Shown here piece after piece: positions 3,273 to 28,534 of a DNA stretch of 29,435 nucleotides. The stretch comes from a virus (Duplodnaviria; Caudoviricetes). The notes beneath the pieces were generated by a model. The model did no database searches and was not told the DNA's origin. It saw only the letters and a program-made list of their open reading frames with translations. The stretch's first letter is position 1, and each line of letters opens with the position of its first letter. The stretch lies in IMG/VR virus record IMGVR_UViG_3300023314_000007, positions 1-29,435 of that record; one strand, 5' to 3'. The position numbers and the translations under genes were made by a program.

Positions 3273-3955
3273 TGTTTAAGTCTAAACCTTTTAGAATTGT
3301 CGCTTACATCCTTGCTTCAACCCTGTTGGTGTTATCACTAACTTTCTCATTTATCACACTTTCACCTGTAGATGTACTCCAGAACTGGAGCCAGCAAACG
3401 GTTGAACAGCCGGCAAACGGGCAACTACCAACCTTCCAAGAAGGCGATACGGTAAAGATCAACACAACATCAAACAAGATCCGCGACATTGACGGAGAAC
3501 GAACGGTCTATATCGACTGTATCCAGGATGGAATTGAAAATCGATACAATGTGTCCACTGCTTCAGTCGGACGGGAACTAGGACAGAAAACAAGCGAAAT
3601 CTCCTACATCATCCCTTACGGAATTTCAAATCTTCCACAGACTTGTCACTTTAGTACATTCATTAACTATAATGTATATGGCATACGGGATCACGAAGAA
3701 TCAGTAAAGACAAATGACTTCATAGTTATGCGGCGCAATCCGACACAAACAGTAGTAACAAACAACACAACAACAGAAACACGAATCACAGAGGGCGCTA
3801 ACGCGGATCAATCAAACAGTCCGTCACCGCAAACTCCGGCAACACCAACAGTTCAAACAAACGACGAACAGAATAATAGCACAGAGACTAAGCAGGAAAC
3901 AGTGGTACAAGCAAAAGTATGTATCCCATTCACCGGCATTTGTCTCTTAAACTAG
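3272..3955 (+). CDS. Membrane-anchored/secreted lysis-cassette protein of unknown function
   Basis: N-terminal TM/signal segment, beta-rich middle with a Cys pair, T/P/N-rich linker, C-terminal CIPFTGIC. Confidence 0.6.
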   Translation: MFKSKPFRIVAYILASTLLVLSLTFSFITLSPVDVLQNWSQQTVEQPANGQLPTFQEGDTVKINTTSNKIRDIDGERTVYIDCIQDGIENRYNVSTASVGRELGQKTSEISYIIPYGISNLPQTCHFSTFINYNVYGIRDHEESVKTNDFIVMRRNPTQTVVTNNTTTETRITEGANADQSNSPSPQTPATPTVQTNDEQNNSTETKQETVVQAKVCIPFTGICLLN

Positions 3956-7079: not shown

Positions 7080-7089
7080 TCTTAGATTA

Positions 7090-7241
7090 AATATACAATG
7101 TTGATAATAACTGCCCCTGTGACTAAAAGGTGTTATATAGGGGCAGTTTCGCTTTCTTGGCAGGGGACTAACATTCTCGAAGAGGTTAGCGGCTTACCTT
7201 CAGCTGTCACAGCCGTACCGTTATTATCAACATTCTATATT
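7090..7241. ncRNA. Putative structured RNA module closed by a 22-bp stem
   Basis: 7090-7111 pairs with 7220-7241 (1 mismatch) and encloses three hairpins. Strand uncertain; flanking transcription is minus. Confidence 0.55.
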
Positions 7242-7300
7242 CAAGGTGGCGGTGAAGTCCAGGAGAAAGACGACACCGCCAATAGGGGGTATAAGGGGCA

Positions 7301-7555
7301 CAGTTCTTACGAACTGCGAAGAGCAACCAATACACGTTAATCGGCTTTCCACCTTCAGGAAATCACCCCTGGGTAATAACCATGTGACTCGCAACACCTG
7401 TATCTTATAAACCGGCTACCCGTGATTAAATCGGACCGAGGGTCGTTTTTAGCTGACCAAATCATTGGGAAGTCTGCCTATAGTTCAGATCCTTCCAGCC
7501 TTGATATTTACTCCGCTGTGTGTCAAGTTGCTCTTCGCAAACCATAAGGTTCGCG
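7301..7555 (-). ncRNA. Putative structured RNA module (~250 nt)
   Basis: 13-bp inverted repeat 7315-7327/7527-7539. Flanking hairpins include CAGTTC-GUAA-GAACTG (GNRA loop on minus). G-U pairs favour minus. Confidence 0.55.
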
Positions 7556-7688
7556 GTTGTAGTCAGACGAGTACGGTGGGCCACCTGTGCTCTATATCGT
7601 CCAACGACTATACTGCCGGATCTCTATAGATACTCCACCTCGATGAATAACGGTCTTCTAGAAAGCACCGCACTAATCTGACTACAAC
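7556..7688 (-). ncRNA. Putative structured RNA module (~130 nt)
   Basis: 12-bp stem 7556-7567/7677-7688, continued by GUGCGGUG/CACCGUAC (G-U on minus). Confidence 0.55.
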
Positions 7689-7700
7689 TATTTTAAGGTA

Positions 7701-8300
7701 CTAATGCCTTGCTAATATCTCATAAGCGTACATTATTCGTTGAGATTGCATACACTTGCCACATCTCTCAAACTTGTTCTGGAACGCGATAGTCGCAGAC
7801 TCTACATTGTCATACGCTAGTACGGCATTTTTAGCTGCTATCTCTGTTCCATTTAGTTCCTCCATAAGATAATTAAGTTGAACATTTACGTTCAAGTAAT
7901 CACCTTTGGCGACTAAATTACTCCTACGGGCACCGATCCACTGGGCTAGTCCAAGACCACCCGGTACATCTGATGTGTTAAATCCGTGCTCCTGTTGTAG
8001 ATTCCCCATGATACCAGCAGTCTGATTTCGGGTGAATCCTTGGGAGATCAGAAAATTCCAAGCAATGCTTTCGTTTTCTGATGGAGTTGTTATTGATTGT
8101 GTAGGTGCTGGTTGCTGTTCTACTACGGGAGCCGGTTCCGGTAATACCTCTTTCGGGGTGTCCATTATCGGCTCAACTTTCTTTTCTACTTGTTGAGTAG
8201 TCACCTGTTTTGTTTCGGCGACTGGTGGTTCTTCTTTTTCTACCGGGAGGGCTAAGGTACTCAGTACCAAGGCCACCACGATTATTAAAATCTTAATCAC
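7701..8300 (-). CDS. Secreted phage-tail-type lysozyme
   Basis: Signal peptide, P/E/T linker, then AWNFLISQGFTRNQTAGIMGNLQQEH..GLAQW...QLNYLMEEL...FERC (Phage_lysozyme2-like). Confidence 0.85.
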   Translation of the reverse strand: MIKILIIVVALVLSTLALPVEKEEPPVAETKQVTTQQVEKKVEPIMDTPKEVLPEPAPVVEQQPAPTQSITTPSENESIAWNFLISQGFTRNQTAGIMGNLQQEHGFNTSDVPGGLGLAQWIGARRSNLVAKGDYLNVNVQLNYLMEELNGTEIAAKNAVLAYDNVESATIAFQNKFERCGKCMQSQRIMYAYEILARH

Positions 8301-8306
8301 TATCTC

Positions 8307-8335
8307 AATGTAGCATACTCAGGATCAAAAGTCAA
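8307..8335 (-). promoter_or_regulatory. Repeated leftward phage promoter, copy 1
   Basis: TTGACT-17 bp-TACATT with TGC extended -10. Confidence 0.7.
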
Positions 8336-8338
8336 TAC

Positions 8339-8680
8339 TTATTTGAGTTTTGATGTTGCGGCTTTGACACCAAGCATCTGAGCGAGAAGGATGTGATCTA
8401 CTGCGACACTATTCCAGTGTTCGCGGATACCACCATTAGCATATTCACCATCGTCTTCTACTTCAGCGAGTGTATCGATAAATGCAGCAGCTGCTCGTTT
8501 AATTCGATCTACTTTAGGATTATCACTAGGATTGAAATCGATAGTCACAATTTTCATTCCGATTGACAATTCCTCTTCTTTTTTCTTATCCTCTGCAGCA
8601 GCTGTTGCTGTTTTAGTTTGAGGCAATTTATTTGATTCTATACACATATCCCTTTTCTCTCTTTCTATTGAAAATTTCAA
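8339..8680 (-). CDS. Acb2/Tad1-like helical-hairpin protein (candidate nucleotide-signal sponge); true start probably further downstream
   Basis: G..V..DFNPS....VDRIKRAAAAFID...AQMLGVKAAT pattern. Confidence 0.55.
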   Translation of the reverse strand: MKFSIEREKRDMCIESNKLPQTKTATAAAEDKKKEEELSIGMKIVTIDFNPSDNPKVDRIKRAAAAFIDTLAEVEDDGEYANGGIREHWNSVAVDHILLAQMLGVKAATSKLK

Positions 8681-17110: not shown

Positions 17111-17139
17111 CCCTATACCTTTCCTTATGAACACTTCGA

Positions 17140-17288
17140 GGGGGGTGTCTTACTCCGGATCAAGGATCGCGTATCAGCAATGCACTCTTCCACGTCCAGC
17201 ACCGGCAGAAAACCGTAGAACACCACCAGCCACTATGTCTTTGGCTGCGCGGCCTCAGACGGGTCTAGTGAGATTCGTGCATCCCCCC
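17140..17288 (-). ncRNA. Putative multi-branched RNA module (~150 nt)
   Basis: G6/C6 closing stem, AUGCAC/GUGCAU inner stem, three hairpins with G-U pairs on minus. Confidence 0.5.
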
Positions 17289-17316
17289 AGAATTACTCAT
17301 AAATTGTTAAGTAAAC

Positions 17317-17420
17317 AGTCAAGCGATCAGCGGATGGAGTTTCGCTAACTCCCCGGTGGGCACTCGCCTTCCGTGTAGGCTATCGCGTTACAGCGTATTT
17401 TTACAGCTGACCGCATGACT
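17317..17420 (-). ncRNA. Putative cloverleaf-like RNA module (~104 nt)
   Basis: AGUCA-U-GCGGUCAGC / GCUGAUCGC-U-UGACU closing stem plus three short hairpins. Confidence 0.55.
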
Positions 17421-17437
17421 ATCTAATTTGCTAAGTC

Positions 17438-17506
17438 GATAAGGTACCGGGCGGCCCGACAGGTGGCTATCAATGTGTATTGATTCACCCGGTACTAATC
17501 CTTATC
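17438..17506 (-). ncRNA. Putative three-way-junction RNA (~69 nt) at the transcript 5' end
   Basis: GAUAAGG/CCUUAUC and UACCGGGUG/CGCCCGGUA stems, two inner hairpins. Confidence 0.5.
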
Positions 17507-24937: not shown

Positions 24938-25101
24938 TGTGATACTTCCTCTAGGTGTTCTATCGCGCTTTTAATGTCTTCGTCAATATTAGCCTCATAA
25001 ATAGCCTTAACCACTTCAAGGATACGGCTAGTGCTAAAGCCTGTTTCTTTACTAGCCTGTAAAGCTAGTTTCTGCTCTTCTGCTCCCCATGTTATAATCA
25101 T
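24934..25101 (-). CDS. 55-aa hypothetical protein (not in the ORF track)
   Basis: AAGGGGG RBS, ATGA overlap. Confidence 0.6.
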   Translation of the reverse strand: MIITWGAEEQKLALQASKETGFSTSRILEVVKAIYEANIDEDIKSAIEHLEEVSQ

Positions 25102-25116
25102 GTTACCCCCTTATTA

Positions 25117-25236
25117 TTAGATATTAGGTTGCCATGCCATGAGTAGCATTAAAGCTATCAATCCTGCAACCTCTAGCGTTGTCTTAAACTTGTTAATCAG
25201 GCTCTTCTTATTCGTTTTATTGTGTTTATATTGCAT
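25117..25236 (-). CDS. 39-aa basic/hydrophobic peptide
   Basis: MQYKHNKTNKKSLINKFKTTLEVAGLIALMLLMAWQPNI*. Confidence 0.45.
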   Translation of the reverse strand: MQYKHNKTNKKSLINKFKTTLEVAGLIALMLLMAWQPNI

Positions 25237-25241
25237 AATAG

Positions 25242-25358
25242 TTAATTAAATGTAACGATTGTTAATGGATATGGATCTAGGTCCACTGGTGGCACTACTT
25301 CGATTCGTGGTGTCGCCTTTGTTGCTATATACTGTACTTTAATCTTTTTTGATGCCAT
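25242..25358 (-). CDS. 38-aa first early peptide
   Basis: Strong GGAGGT RBS; MASKKIKVQYIATKATPRIEVVPPVDLDPYPLTIVTFN*. Confidence 0.55.
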   Translation of the reverse strand: MASKKIKVQYIATKATPRIEVVPPVDLDPYPLTIVTFN

Positions 25359-25462
25359 TTCTTTTTACCTCCAGAAATTAGCTTTTGTTTATTATAAGCG
25401 TTGGATCTGGTGAGGCTTAACGGGTTATGCTCTCGGTTGATCGCTTACTTGCTTATGTATTA

Positions 25463-25491
25463 ATAATAGCACATCATCATTAATAATACAA
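25463..25491 (-). promoter_or_regulatory. Leftward early promoter
   Basis: TTGTAT-17 bp-TATTAT with TGTGC before -10; DnaA box TGTGGATAA at 25518-25526. Confidence 0.6.
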
Positions 25492-25550
25492 TACTTTTAT
25501 GATAGTTTATATAATACTGTGGATAACTCAGTTAATGGCCTTATTTTCAT

Positions 25551-26080
25551 ATCCACCCCTGTTAGTGCTGTCAGAGGGGTATTAAAAACGAGCCATTCTA
25601 AGGCTCTCTAAGGCCCTTCTGGATCAATAGTTGAGTGTATGCCCGTCTATTCTATAGCGCCCATACACAAGCTTAGAATCGGCCGGAAGAAAAAGAAAGG
25701 GCTGTTAGTGATAAGGGTAAAGGTGTCATTATTACATAGGGAAGTATACAACTATTATCATTACTCTTATTATTCTTATTGTAGGGTTATTATTATAGCT
25801 CTATTTATTGTTTATGTGTAAGGTATTAACATGCCTCCGTGTGCTTACGCTTGTCTTTTGATTAATGCAACCGCTCATCCACCCCTGTTATCTTACCTTT
25901 TACGACATAAGCCTTATTGTTAATAGATGGATGTGTACTCATCTTTAGCCTAAAAGCTTAATGTCGCACAATATACGCTACCCCTGTTACAGTACACCCC
26001 TATCCCTTTAAGTTTAATGTTAATTGTTTAATGTTTTAATTTTTATTTTAATTGTTTAATTGTTTATTTAACTATTTAAT
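25551..26080. repeat. Direct repeats (ATCC)ACCCCTGTTA x3 plus T-rich TTAAT-repeat tract; candidate origin or packaging/terminus region
   Basis: Copies at 25551-25564, 25877-25890 and 25980-25989; AT tract ~26007-26080. Confidence 0.55.
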
Positions 26081-26228
26081 GGTTAGGGGGATCATCAGAC
26101 CCCTATAGCACCCGACTGGGGAAGATTAAATATGCTGGGGTGGCGATATTAATCCCTCCCATGTTGCGTCCATAAAATATTTTACAGTTAAAGGCTTACT
26201 ATACCACAAAAAATTTTTATTAAAAGAC

Positions 26229-26258
26229 TTGACAAATCGAATACAGTCGTGTTATCCT
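26229..26258 (+). promoter_or_regulatory. Putative rightward promoter
   Basis: TTGACA-18 bp-TATCCT with TG extended -10 and A/T-tract UP element. Confidence 0.5.
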
Positions 26259-26562
26259 TAGTATACAGTCCAGGCAAGGCAGAAGCAGCCACTAGAGGAC
26301 TCTAAGATATCTAGTATACAAGCTTATAACGGGTGATCTCGCCTATAATGAGATGCAGTGACGGAAATTGATTCCCACTAAAGAGTAATCGTACCTTAAT
26401 AAATAATTAAATAGAATCGATCGTCTTCGACGATAGTTGTATTGAATTCATTGTTAGACAGTTTCGAGGATAATAGCTAATTTCTTGAACTGCCGACGTT
26501 AGAGGTTGCCTAGTAGCGAAGCGCTGCAAATTAGGGAGCCTTTTTAGAATACCCTTTGACCA

Positions 26563-26591
26563 TTGAAACTGTATATACCTTCTGCTATTAT
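26563..26591 (+). promoter_or_regulatory. Rightward promoter for the packaging operon
   Basis: TTGAAA-17 bp-TATTAT with TGC extended -10. Confidence 0.6.
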
Positions 26592-26620
26592 TACATCATA
26601 TTAATAAGCAAAGGAACAGC

Positions 26621-26950: not shown

Positions 26951-28534
26951 ATGGATATCGATGTAGCGACTAAACAGGCTACAGAGGCAGCGCTCGATGA
27001 GATCGCAGAACGAGCTAAAACAGACTTGTTCTATCTTGTCAAATATATTCTTGCTTCTGATCCTAACCTGATTACAGAAGGTACGCACCGCGACCTTACT
27101 GAAATTACTAAACCACTGTTGCCAGGCTTCGTCCCGGGAACTGAGGTTAACTTTACCCCAAAGACTCGCTACAATAACGGTAAAAAGGATGAGGTCCTCT
27201 CGGACCAATTCGATGAGAAGAGGAAGCAAGTCTTGATTCTCATGCCGCGTGGTACATTTAAGAGTTCAATCATTACGATTGGATTCACTTTACAATATTT
27301 ACTAAATGATCCGAACGCTCGAGTCCTTATTGACTCCGAGACGTATGGAAAGGCTAAGAACTTCTTGGCCGAGATTAAAGGACACTTAGATTCAAATGTC
27401 AAATTCAGAACAATCTTCAAACACATCTACGGAGTCTTTCCAGATGATACTCGAAAGGACCCCTCGGTCCGCTGGACGGACGCTCAGGTTGATCTCGCAA
27501 GTCGAACGATTAAAAGAAAAGAACCCAGCATTATGTGTTCGGGTGTTGACCGATCGATTAACGGGATGCACTTCGATCTCATCATTGAAGACGACCTTCA
27601 CTCAGAAAAGAACGTCACGAATAAAGACCAGATCGAACAAGTCATTGCCCACCGCCGACTCGCCCTCTCACTTTTGGACCCAGGTATGCCACGAATTACC
27701 ATTGGAACTCGTTGGGACTTCATGGATGCCTATTCCGATATCCTTAAGAACAAACGAAAGTCCTATAACATCCTTCTTCGCAAGGCCATTGAAGACGACG
27801 ACACTCTCCTCTTCCCAGAACGCTTAACTCGAGAGTTCCTCGACGAGCAGCGCCGCGAACAGGGTAGCTATATCTTCTCATGTCAATACATGAACAACCC
27901 AGTAGACGACGAAACGGCTACGTTTAAGCACTCATATTTCAAATATGTGGACTGGGACGATATAAAAGACAAACCTATCAACTGGTTCTTAGCCATAGAC
28001 CCCTCTAACGAAGGGCCTTATTCTGACTACGCCGCATTTGTCCTGGCCGGGCTGGATGCCGAGCATAATTTGTATGTTCGAGAGGTATATCATAACAAGA
28101 TGAAGTATTCTGATATTATTACCCTGATGTTCGATTGGTATCAGCGGTACACTCCGAGAGGAATGGCGCTAGAGACAGTTGCAACTCAGAAGAATATAGA
28201 GTATATGTTAATAGATGAACAAAAACGCCGAGGCGTTTGGTTGCCGATGAAGATCATCAAAAGCCGAAGTACAGCCAAGGAGGATCGTATTCGTTCTCTA
28301 GCACCTTATTACGAGTATGGACGAGTGTTCCACGTTAAAGATTCTAACCAGATGGAAGATCTTGAATACGAATTGACGCACTTCCCTAAGGGTGAGAACG
28401 ACGACATGATCGACGCACTTGCCACAATCCTCGAAATTGCAACTCCGCCTAGCGGCAGGAATGTACGCAGACAAAATAAAGAAAAAACACCGAGAACTTA
28501 CGATAAACCAAGAAGCCTAGTCACAGGAATATAA
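26951..28534 (+). CDS. terL: Terminase large subunit
   Basis: Walker A LILMPRGTFKSS, Walker B FDLIIEDD, coupling motif IGTRW, nuclease LAIDPS / DYAA / NDDMIDALA. Confidence 0.95.
   Translation: MDIDVATKQATEAALDEIAERAKTDLFYLVKYILASDPNLITEGTHRDLTEITKPLLPGFVPGTEVNFTPKTRYNNGKKDEVLSDQFDEKRKQVLILMPRGTFKSSIITIGFTLQYLLNDPNARVLIDSETYGKAKNFLAEIKGHLDSNVKFRTIFKHIYGVFPDDTRKDPSVRWTDAQVDLASRTIKRKEPSIMCSGVDRSINGMHFDLIIEDDLHSEKNVTNKDQIEQVIAHRRLALSLLDPGMPRITIGTRWDFMDAYSDILKNKRKSYNILLRKAIEDDDTLLFPERLTREFLDEQRREQGSYIFSCQYMNNPVDDETATFKHSYFKYVDWDDIKDKPINWFLAIDPSNEGPYSDYAAFVLAGLDAEHNLYVREVYHNKMKYSDIITLMFDWYQRYTPRGMALETVATQKNIEYMLIDEQKRRGVWLPMKIIKSRSTAKEDRIRSLAPYYEYGRVFHVKDSNQMEDLEYELTHFPKGENDDMIDALATILEIATPPSGRNVRRQNKEKTPRTYDKPRSLVTGI

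Follow-up and report, generated by a model that had tools for sequence, protein, structure and literature searches.

The stretch of DNA analysed here, hereafter called the window (29,435 nt), is a phage fragment with a terminase encoded at positions 26951–28534. In this window, a gap of 621 nt without a credible gene separates the gene for a muramidase from that for an exonuclease. The features of the gap and its surroundings, in the direction of the minus strand, are as follows.

8307–8335, minus strand: sigma70-like promoter preceding the muramidase gene, with 9/12 consensus positions and an extended TG
7701–8300, minus strand: muramidase (Phage_lysozyme2, PF18013), the 5′ neighbour of the block, close in sequence to a gene family of the Saccharimonadia hosts
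7556–7688, minus strand: module 1 (M1), a 133-nt hairpin with closing stems of 13 bp and 9 bp; no homologue found
7536–7555, minus strand: hairpin A of the module-2 frame, with a loop complementary to that of hairpin C; present in the window, L002, and L010
7315–7539, minus strand: module 2 (M2), a 13-bp closing stem (stem B) around a 199-nt insert; frame present in the window, L002, and L010
7299–7318, minus strand: hairpin C with a GNRA tetraloop (GUAA in the window, GCAA in L002)
7281–7298, minus strand: single-stranded C-rich linker, which has the highest primary-sequence conservation within the block
7245–7280, minus strand: module 3 (M3), an acceptor-stem-like hairpin with a 7-bp covarying stem, a pyrimidine-rich loop, and G at position 1
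7087–7244, minus strand: module 4 (M4), an AU-rich stalk of 8–9 bp plus 15 bp around a 108-nt insert; stalk present in the window, L001, and L013
7159–7199, minus strand: core of the module-4 insert, 41 nt, with an unpaired C-run, shared by RNAs in the tRNA clusters of L004 and L005
6303–7079, minus strand: RNase H-fold 3′–5′ exonuclease (RNase_H_2/phrog_403), the 3′ neighbour of the block

The promoter-like site is one of three copies of a repeat (at 8291, 15212, and 17499), and the promoter scan as a whole was not above shuffles (13 versus 8.3 ± 2.7). The muramidase of the phage carries a signal anchor and is shortened relative to a family of host cell-wall enzymes, which have about 430 aa. 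Just upstream of it, the gene at 8339–8680 (minus strand) gives a weak match to the Acb2/Tad1 hairpin (E 3e-4, below the cut-off), and its product is possibly a signalling-nucleotide sponge.

The host is likely a member of the Saccharimonadia (ultra-small Saccharibacteria), judging from sequence matches. Among 185,579 genomes, the only relative of the exonuclease lies in a Ca. Saccharibacteria assembly. In searches confined to the class Saccharimonadia, the muramidase alignment matches 136 of the 401 genomes (best E 9e-71), and the window DNA is matched by 65 of them, mostly at the end of the SSB gene; G348 is one weak match within the latter tally, and no conclusion depends on it by itself. 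A spacer match to the phage was not found.

First, we examined whether the block is structured as the first-pass annotation had described it. All four of the proposed closing stems exist, with Watson–Crick pairs at 21/22, 8/8, 13/13, and 12/12 positions, as does the GUAA tetraloop hairpin, at 7299–7318. The near-complete tiling was also borne out, as the modules cover 584 of 602 nt; the module list was correct in its stems and left out the two hairpins at 7536–7555 and 7299–7318 and the C-rich linker at 7281–7298. Uninterrupted Watson–Crick stems of at least 11 bp, enclosing at least 30 nt within 300 nt, occur three times in the 29.4-kb window, all within the block (0–3 in each of five locally shuffled whole windows). 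The minus strand of 7087–7688 folds with −207.5 kcal/mol (z −5.55), and none of the 20 shuffles folds as well. The z values of the single modules on the minus and plus strands are −4.1 and −3.1 for M1, −3.5 and −2.0 for M2, −6.1 and −5.4 for M3, and −6.6 and −5.4 for M4. Accordingly, the suggested preference for the minus strand is clear for M1 and M2 and slight for M3, but it is absent for M4, in which the two strands fold with −53.6 (minus) versus −53.1 kcal/mol (plus) and contain four versus six G–U pairs.

Five ORFs of 53–80 aa overlap the block. When they were compared with 165 other loci, one antisense ORF was matched, over 36 aa and in one phage only, and no protein ORF is conserved across the block. 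The view that the block contains no known RNA class also stood: no family of Rfam 15 reached its gathering threshold, with chance-level matches only, even at E values up to 10, and ARAGORN found neither a tRNA nor a tmRNA (cloverleaf, or tRNA-like domain (TLD) with T arm and CCA) in the window. Among annotated phages, there is no DNA match to the block, and the flanking proteins are less than 60% identical to annotated-phage proteins.

Next, we analysed the same position in related phages. Searches with the exonuclease and the muramidase returned 7, 17, 7, 9, and 14 loci, and these sets overlap widely. In four relatives, non-coding DNA lies between the same two genes (276 nt in L001, 235 nt in L002, 160 nt in L010, and 374 nt in L013), and in L003, L004, L005, L011, L015, L018, and L023, the exonuclease is likewise preceded by structured non-coding DNA. 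Five of these slots contain tRNAs (one in L004, four in L005, one in L011, five in L015, and two in L018). In addition, L004, L005, and L015 contain tmRNA-like RNAs of 82–84 nt with G3·U70 and ACCA and without the message part, and L003 gives an Rfam tmRNA match below the cut-off. These tmRNA-like RNAs, which consist of the TLD only, are located as follows.

L004, 3434–3515: TLD-only tmRNA-like RNA
L005, 2685–2767: TLD-only tmRNA-like RNA
L015, 509–592: TLD-only tmRNA-like RNA
L003, 1860–1939: TLD-only tmRNA-like RNA (the match below the Rfam cut-off)

As a side result, the four form a new set of DS6A type and are candidate SmpB decoys. In the more distant muramidase relatives L037, L040, L041, and L042, stalk-closed or tRNA-like RNAs directly follow the enzyme gene, and likewise in L073, which was found by a motif match. 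No such block lies next to the exonuclease in L006, L016, L022, and L049, or next to the muramidase in L038, L039, and L098. Because tRNAs and tmRNA-like RNAs lie in the slot of relatives, the block occupies the tRNA-cluster position of part of the clade, filled here by other RNAs.

Two further observations concern these relatives. L040 (about 3310–3570) and L001 (3878–3962) contain tRNA-like folds within long closing stems, which ARAGORN does not call; one of them has D and T arms and no anticodon arm. Moreover, L005 (3075–3145), L011 (325–440), and L073 (915–1030), the cassettes of which are otherwise unrelated, share a conserved structured RNA family (z 14–18 between copies) without an Rfam match.

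Comparison of the cassettes revealed three conserved frames with compensatory changes: a three-hairpin junction, the C-rich linker with the ACCU hairpin, and a 23-bp AU-rich stalk. The M3 stem and the M2 and M4 frames all keep their pairing through such changes. The M2 frame consists of hairpin A, stem B, and hairpin C with its GNRA loop, and both hairpins and the complementarity between the A and C loops are kept in all three copies (window, L002, and L010). As the two loops are complementary, the frame can alternatively form one long duplex. These two forms differ by 1–3 kcal/mol, and G–U pairs preserve both of them on the minus strand only. In M3, the outer six pairs are paired in all 30 cells of five sequences, and three of the six pairs have changed on both sides; among 500 shuffles, none matched the paired fraction or the covariation score and 99 matched the number of covarying pairs, although such controls overstate the significance, since each frame is represented by only 3–6 sequences, all related. 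The M4 stalk extends over 23–24 bp, with one purine mismatch at the same position in all three copies (window, L001, and L013).

These changes bear on the idea that the block is a decaying tRNA cluster full of functionless relics. The slot is indeed that of tRNA clusters, M3 resembles a bare acceptor stem, and the inserts are not conserved between close relatives. Nevertheless, the compensatory changes in the frames largely refute this idea, and the folding (z −5.6), the near-complete tiling, and the conservation of an insert core between phages with 54–60% identical exonucleases also speak against it. We consider it improbable.

In contrast to the frames, the inserts are exchanged. The stem B insert is 199 nt long in the window, 91 nt in L002, and 37 nt in L010, and its contents are unrelated among the three (z 0.0 and −1.6). 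L001 and L013, with 95% identical muramidase DNA and near-identical exonucleases, have unrelated slot-1 and M4 inserts (z −0.3 each) despite the same frames. The M4 insert of the window resembles those of L004 (z 11.1) and L005 (z 9.5), the exonucleases of which are 54–60% identical to that of the window, more than those of L001 (z 3.4, with only a short common stretch) and L013 (z −1.2), which have the same frame. This match of the M4 core to distant phages, together with the unrelated inserts in near-identical phages, shows that inserts move between frames; we do not claim a direction of transfer, because the exonuclease tree is weakly supported (2/12 branches starred). M1 is dissimilar to what the relatives carry in slot 1 (z −0.5 to 0.6). 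An 11-nt motif of the M2 insert (7422–7432) recurs in L005, L011, and L073 (z about 3); in the motif scan, 10 of the 12 matches were AT-rich chance matches, one was the contig of L005, and one was new (L073). A reading of this 11-mer as a mimic of the tRNA-Lys anticodon was rejected, since the host anticodon stems differ (4/4). In the absence of homologues, the folds of M1 and most of the M2 insert depend on the energy calculations. The modules had been called non-homologous, which is correct within the window, but three of the four are partly homologous to sequences of other phages.

The modules recur in varying combinations among the cassettes, and the complementarity between modules does not exceed 9 bp. 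Both facts, together with the slot length of 160–621 nt, the exchanged contents, and the lack of an Rfam match, contradict a single large RNA like GOLLD, ROOL, or OLE. The first-pass annotation had named one large ncRNA as an option, and 600 nt of uninterrupted structure in the tRNA region of a phage would suggest it. We judge this option to be quite improbable.

Could the stems act as DNA, as cruciform or hairpin sites of recombination or replication that also drive the exchange of inserts? The M2 frame is an inverted hairpin pair capable of forming a cruciform, M4 has no strand preference, and a RusA-like resolvase is encoded nearby. On the other hand, G–U pairs preserve both M2 forms only on the minus strand, the GNRA loop is conserved, the DNA energies are about half of the RNA ones and strand-neutral, and tRNAs share the slot. 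A role as DNA is thus hardly probable.

With tRNAs in the slot of relatives, covarying frames, and no protein conserved across the block, the proposal of a cassette of distinct phage ncRNAs on the minus strand has held up. We are highly confident that the muramidase–exonuclease gap contains a real ncRNA cassette, which is conserved, modular, and composed of new RNA families absent from Rfam. No published account of such a frame-and-insert cassette was found, in a search from which most subscription papers were absent, so this does not mean absence from print.

The unpaired C-run is present in all seven of the closest cassettes, six of which then carry the M3-type hairpin, and all six copies of this hairpin have an invariant ACCU directly after the stem. 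An M3 model trained without the window detects the window copy at E 2.5e-6. Charging of M3 as a minihelix was considered and rejected, because it ends with ACCU, not CCA, in 6/6 copies and no match to the CCA-adding family exists in the five closest hosts (0/5; 20 of 121 genomes in the class have one). In L002 (3938–3955), the M3 insert is a hairpin with a GAGGA loop, presumably like a CsrA-binding site. A derivation of the cassette from host tmRNA, RNase P RNA, or 16S rRNA was also rejected, as no significant match exists.

In its layout, the M4 core is like the apex of T-box stem I, which is a double T-loop. The interdigitated double T-loop, found in T-box stem I, RNase P, and the L1 stalk, is described as binding the tRNA elbow (PMC7583486, PMC4810234), with the consensus AGAGA and UGxRA (PMC7583486). 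In L004 and L005, the core likewise comprises an internal-loop pentanucleotide, a 5-bp helix, and a 12-nt apical loop ending with UGAAA. It differs from the known examples in being stand-alone, and in the window, positions 1 and 5 deviate from the consensus. A strict pattern, drawn post hoc, matches only L004 and L005 (2 versus 0.12 in shuffled sequences); to match the window copy as well, the pattern has to be relaxed, and it is then not above chance (3 versus 1.2). A T-box riboswitch was rejected, as the block lacks the T-box sequence, the antiterminator, and the specifier spacing. T-box-like leaders of hosts (42 of 151 genomes, all under the cut-off) are, by eye, unlike the M4 core. Host copies of the M4 core or M3 were not found in 151 genomes each, in a search without a positive control.

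The 3′ side of M4 reads GAAAC, stem, GUU, stem, which we take to be the order in a hammerhead ribozyme, and M4 might on this ground be self-cleaving. A hammerhead core has CUGANGA and GAAA at a three-way junction. There is no CUGANGA at the stem I junction of M4, no Rfam hammerhead match, and the features are absent from L004 and L005. The hammerhead reading, which is highly improbable, was rejected on these three grounds.

The closest precedents of the cassette are RNA C and RNA D of T4 and the tmRNA fragment of DS6A. The former are non-tRNA small RNAs of the T4 tRNA region, described as being of unknown function (PMC3014915, PMC9697503). Like them, the cassette is located in a phage tRNA-cluster slot (with tRNAs there in five relatives), but its RNAs take the place of the tRNAs and combine conserved frames with inserts that are exchanged; among the annotated phages, no sequence link between the two was found. 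The mycobacteriophage DS6A encodes a TLD-only tmRNA, and a similar TLD-only molecule is reported to inhibit tmRNA (PMC4131195, PMC11915505). TLD-only RNAs occur in this slot of L003, L004, L005, and L015, whereas the window has none: M3 is acceptor-like, has no D or T arm and no G3·U70, and ends with ACCU. What non-tRNA stable RNAs do in the tRNA clusters of phages has been a standing question from T4 RNA C and D onwards. Here, one clade displays many such RNAs with a visible build of constant frames and rapidly exchanged inserts, which permits separate in vitro tests of the two parts.

Two other groups of RNAs share single features with the cassette. First, P4 CI, P1/P7 C4, and phi80 M3 are described as RNase P-processed hairpins without a T loop, derived from longer phage transcripts (PMC5499578). 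M3 of the cassette has the shape of these hairpins, but the cassette has no Rfam match, no long antisense target was found for it in the phage or in 401 host-class genomes, and the host L15 lacks GGU. Second, the C-rich sRNAs RsaE and RNAIII of Firmicutes are variable structured RNAs reported to have conserved unpaired C-runs (PMC2790875). The cassettes also have such a conserved C-run, but their linker is phage-encoded, has no terminator of its own, and places the seed at a putative processed 3′ end.

How might the cassette work? We propose that the promoter at 8335 would drive one transcript through the muramidase gene, the RNA cassette, and, by read-through, the exonuclease gene. Host RNase III would then cleave the long stalks of M4, M1, and the extended M2 form, and host RNase P would cut on the 5′ side of G7280. 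Excision by RNase III, which the first-pass annotation had suggested, is plausible. RNase III, RNase P RNA, and tmRNA are each present in five of five Saccharimonadia genomes. An RNase III substrate is a near-continuous duplex of about 20 bp or more. The M4 stalk has 23–24 bp with one mismatch in three phages, the extended M2 form 14–18 bp, and M1 13 plus 9 bp. The long stalks are thus RNase III-like by length, from which we infer the cutting; the conserved purine mismatch is also part of the substrate-like M4 stalk.

As for RNase P, the enzyme of bacteria is reported to cut hairpin phage RNAs (PMC5499578), and all six M3 copies have the form of a hairpin substrate, namely, a single-stranded leader, a helix beginning with G, and a 3′ RCC. 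Pairing of RCCA with the GGU of L15 and a preference for U at position −1 have been described (PMC4919922). Position −1 of M3 is C in 4/6 copies, and the preferred U is present only in the window among the aligned copies. The L15 of the host RNase P RNA (L142 and L143) has GAU instead of the consensus GGU in both aligned sequences, which makes pairing with L15 a weaker explanation of the conserved ACC. Taken together, the processing of the cassette transcript into separate RNAs is probable.

The cut at G7280 would release an M2 RNA with the GNRA hairpin and a free C-rich 3′ tail, like helix 45 of 16S rRNA with its tail. The linker resembles the anti-SD tail of host 16S rRNA, and the L002 linker differs from this tail at 1 of 11 positions. 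The host 16S genes retain this tail and sit inside a perfect stalk of more than 20 bp; the loss of the anti-SD in CPR is reported for part of the Parcubacteria (PMC9297842). The free tail would pair with G-run ribosome-binding sites and thereby reduce their translation, and unpaired UCCC seeds such as the C-runs of RsaE and RNAIII are reported to bind and block SD sequences (PMC2790875). The mean pairing energy of the linker with phage start regions is −6.95 kcal/mol, versus −7.45 kcal/mol for the host anti-SD, and in G005 the linker pairs with start regions no better than with gene interiors. Its top partners are the start regions of genes at 14.6–25.1 kb, the orthologues of which in G002 rank 1, 3, 5, 8, and 26 of 77. 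These targets are candidates only, because the linker does not surpass the host anti-SD on average, and common descent by itself makes the start regions of orthologues similar. We regard the pairing of the linker tail with ribosome-binding sites as a tentative possibility. No long antisense target of the cassette RNAs was found in the phage or in 401 genomes of the host class; in a search of these genomes for spacer or antisense targets, 15 gave matches of 19–36 nt (E 0.003–0.05), which we read as chance.

The inserts would serve as tRNA-binding or tRNA-like decoys, with the M4 core gripping tRNA elbows. That the M4 core clamps tRNA elbows is doubtful. If it does, a stand-alone, elbow-clamping double T-loop RNA would be a fourth natural use of the motif. 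Whether the released RNAs act on translation in trans is, in our judgement, an evenly balanced question. For the model as a whole, in which a four-RNA cassette in the tRNA slot is cut by host RNase III and RNase P and is predicted to act on translation, we see an even chance. Its most elaborate version is rather doubtful: a plug-in system in which fixed frames, cut by the two host enzymes, would release interchangeable anti-translation RNAs, including a mimic of the 16S tail and an elbow clamp, and the swapping of inserts among nearly identical phages would resemble an arms race. The cassette offers a view of how phages of CPR bacteria with reduced genomes may steer host translation by RNA, not protein.

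Alternatively, the structures could act in cis, as mRNA processing or stability elements that tune the output of the exonuclease operon, the released pieces having no role. The start codon of the exonuclease lies 8 nt past the M4 stalk without a Shine–Dalgarno sequence, the ACCU of M3 directly precedes the start region in L002 and L010, and no terminator-like site is present within the block, all of which would suit such elements. A cis role leaves the structured inserts of 37–199 nt and their exchange unexplained, and the same M4 core occurs in the middle of tRNA clusters, with true tRNAs occupying the slot. We therefore deem it unlikely, and favour the release of RNAs that act in trans.

The window contains a second cassette of the same build.

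17135–17500, minus strand: second cassette, behind its own promoter-like repeat (z −4.2 on the minus strand)

Its counterparts lie at G002:C1:34750–35630 and G001:C1:27700–28250. The cassette of G002 comprises about six modules, each closed by a stalk of 15–25 bp, one in common with the window and two with G001.

Finally, the 8-mer that opens the processing stalk of host 16S rRNA, which resembles what we take to be the rRNA boxA, occurs six times in 20 cassettes (0.2 in shuffled sequences). It is absent from the first cluster of the window and is located at 17303–17310 of the window and in the cassettes of L013, L023, L011, L005, and G002. Elsewhere in the window, an AT-rich stretch of 1.5 kb with few ORFs (25100–26620) lies between divergent operons.
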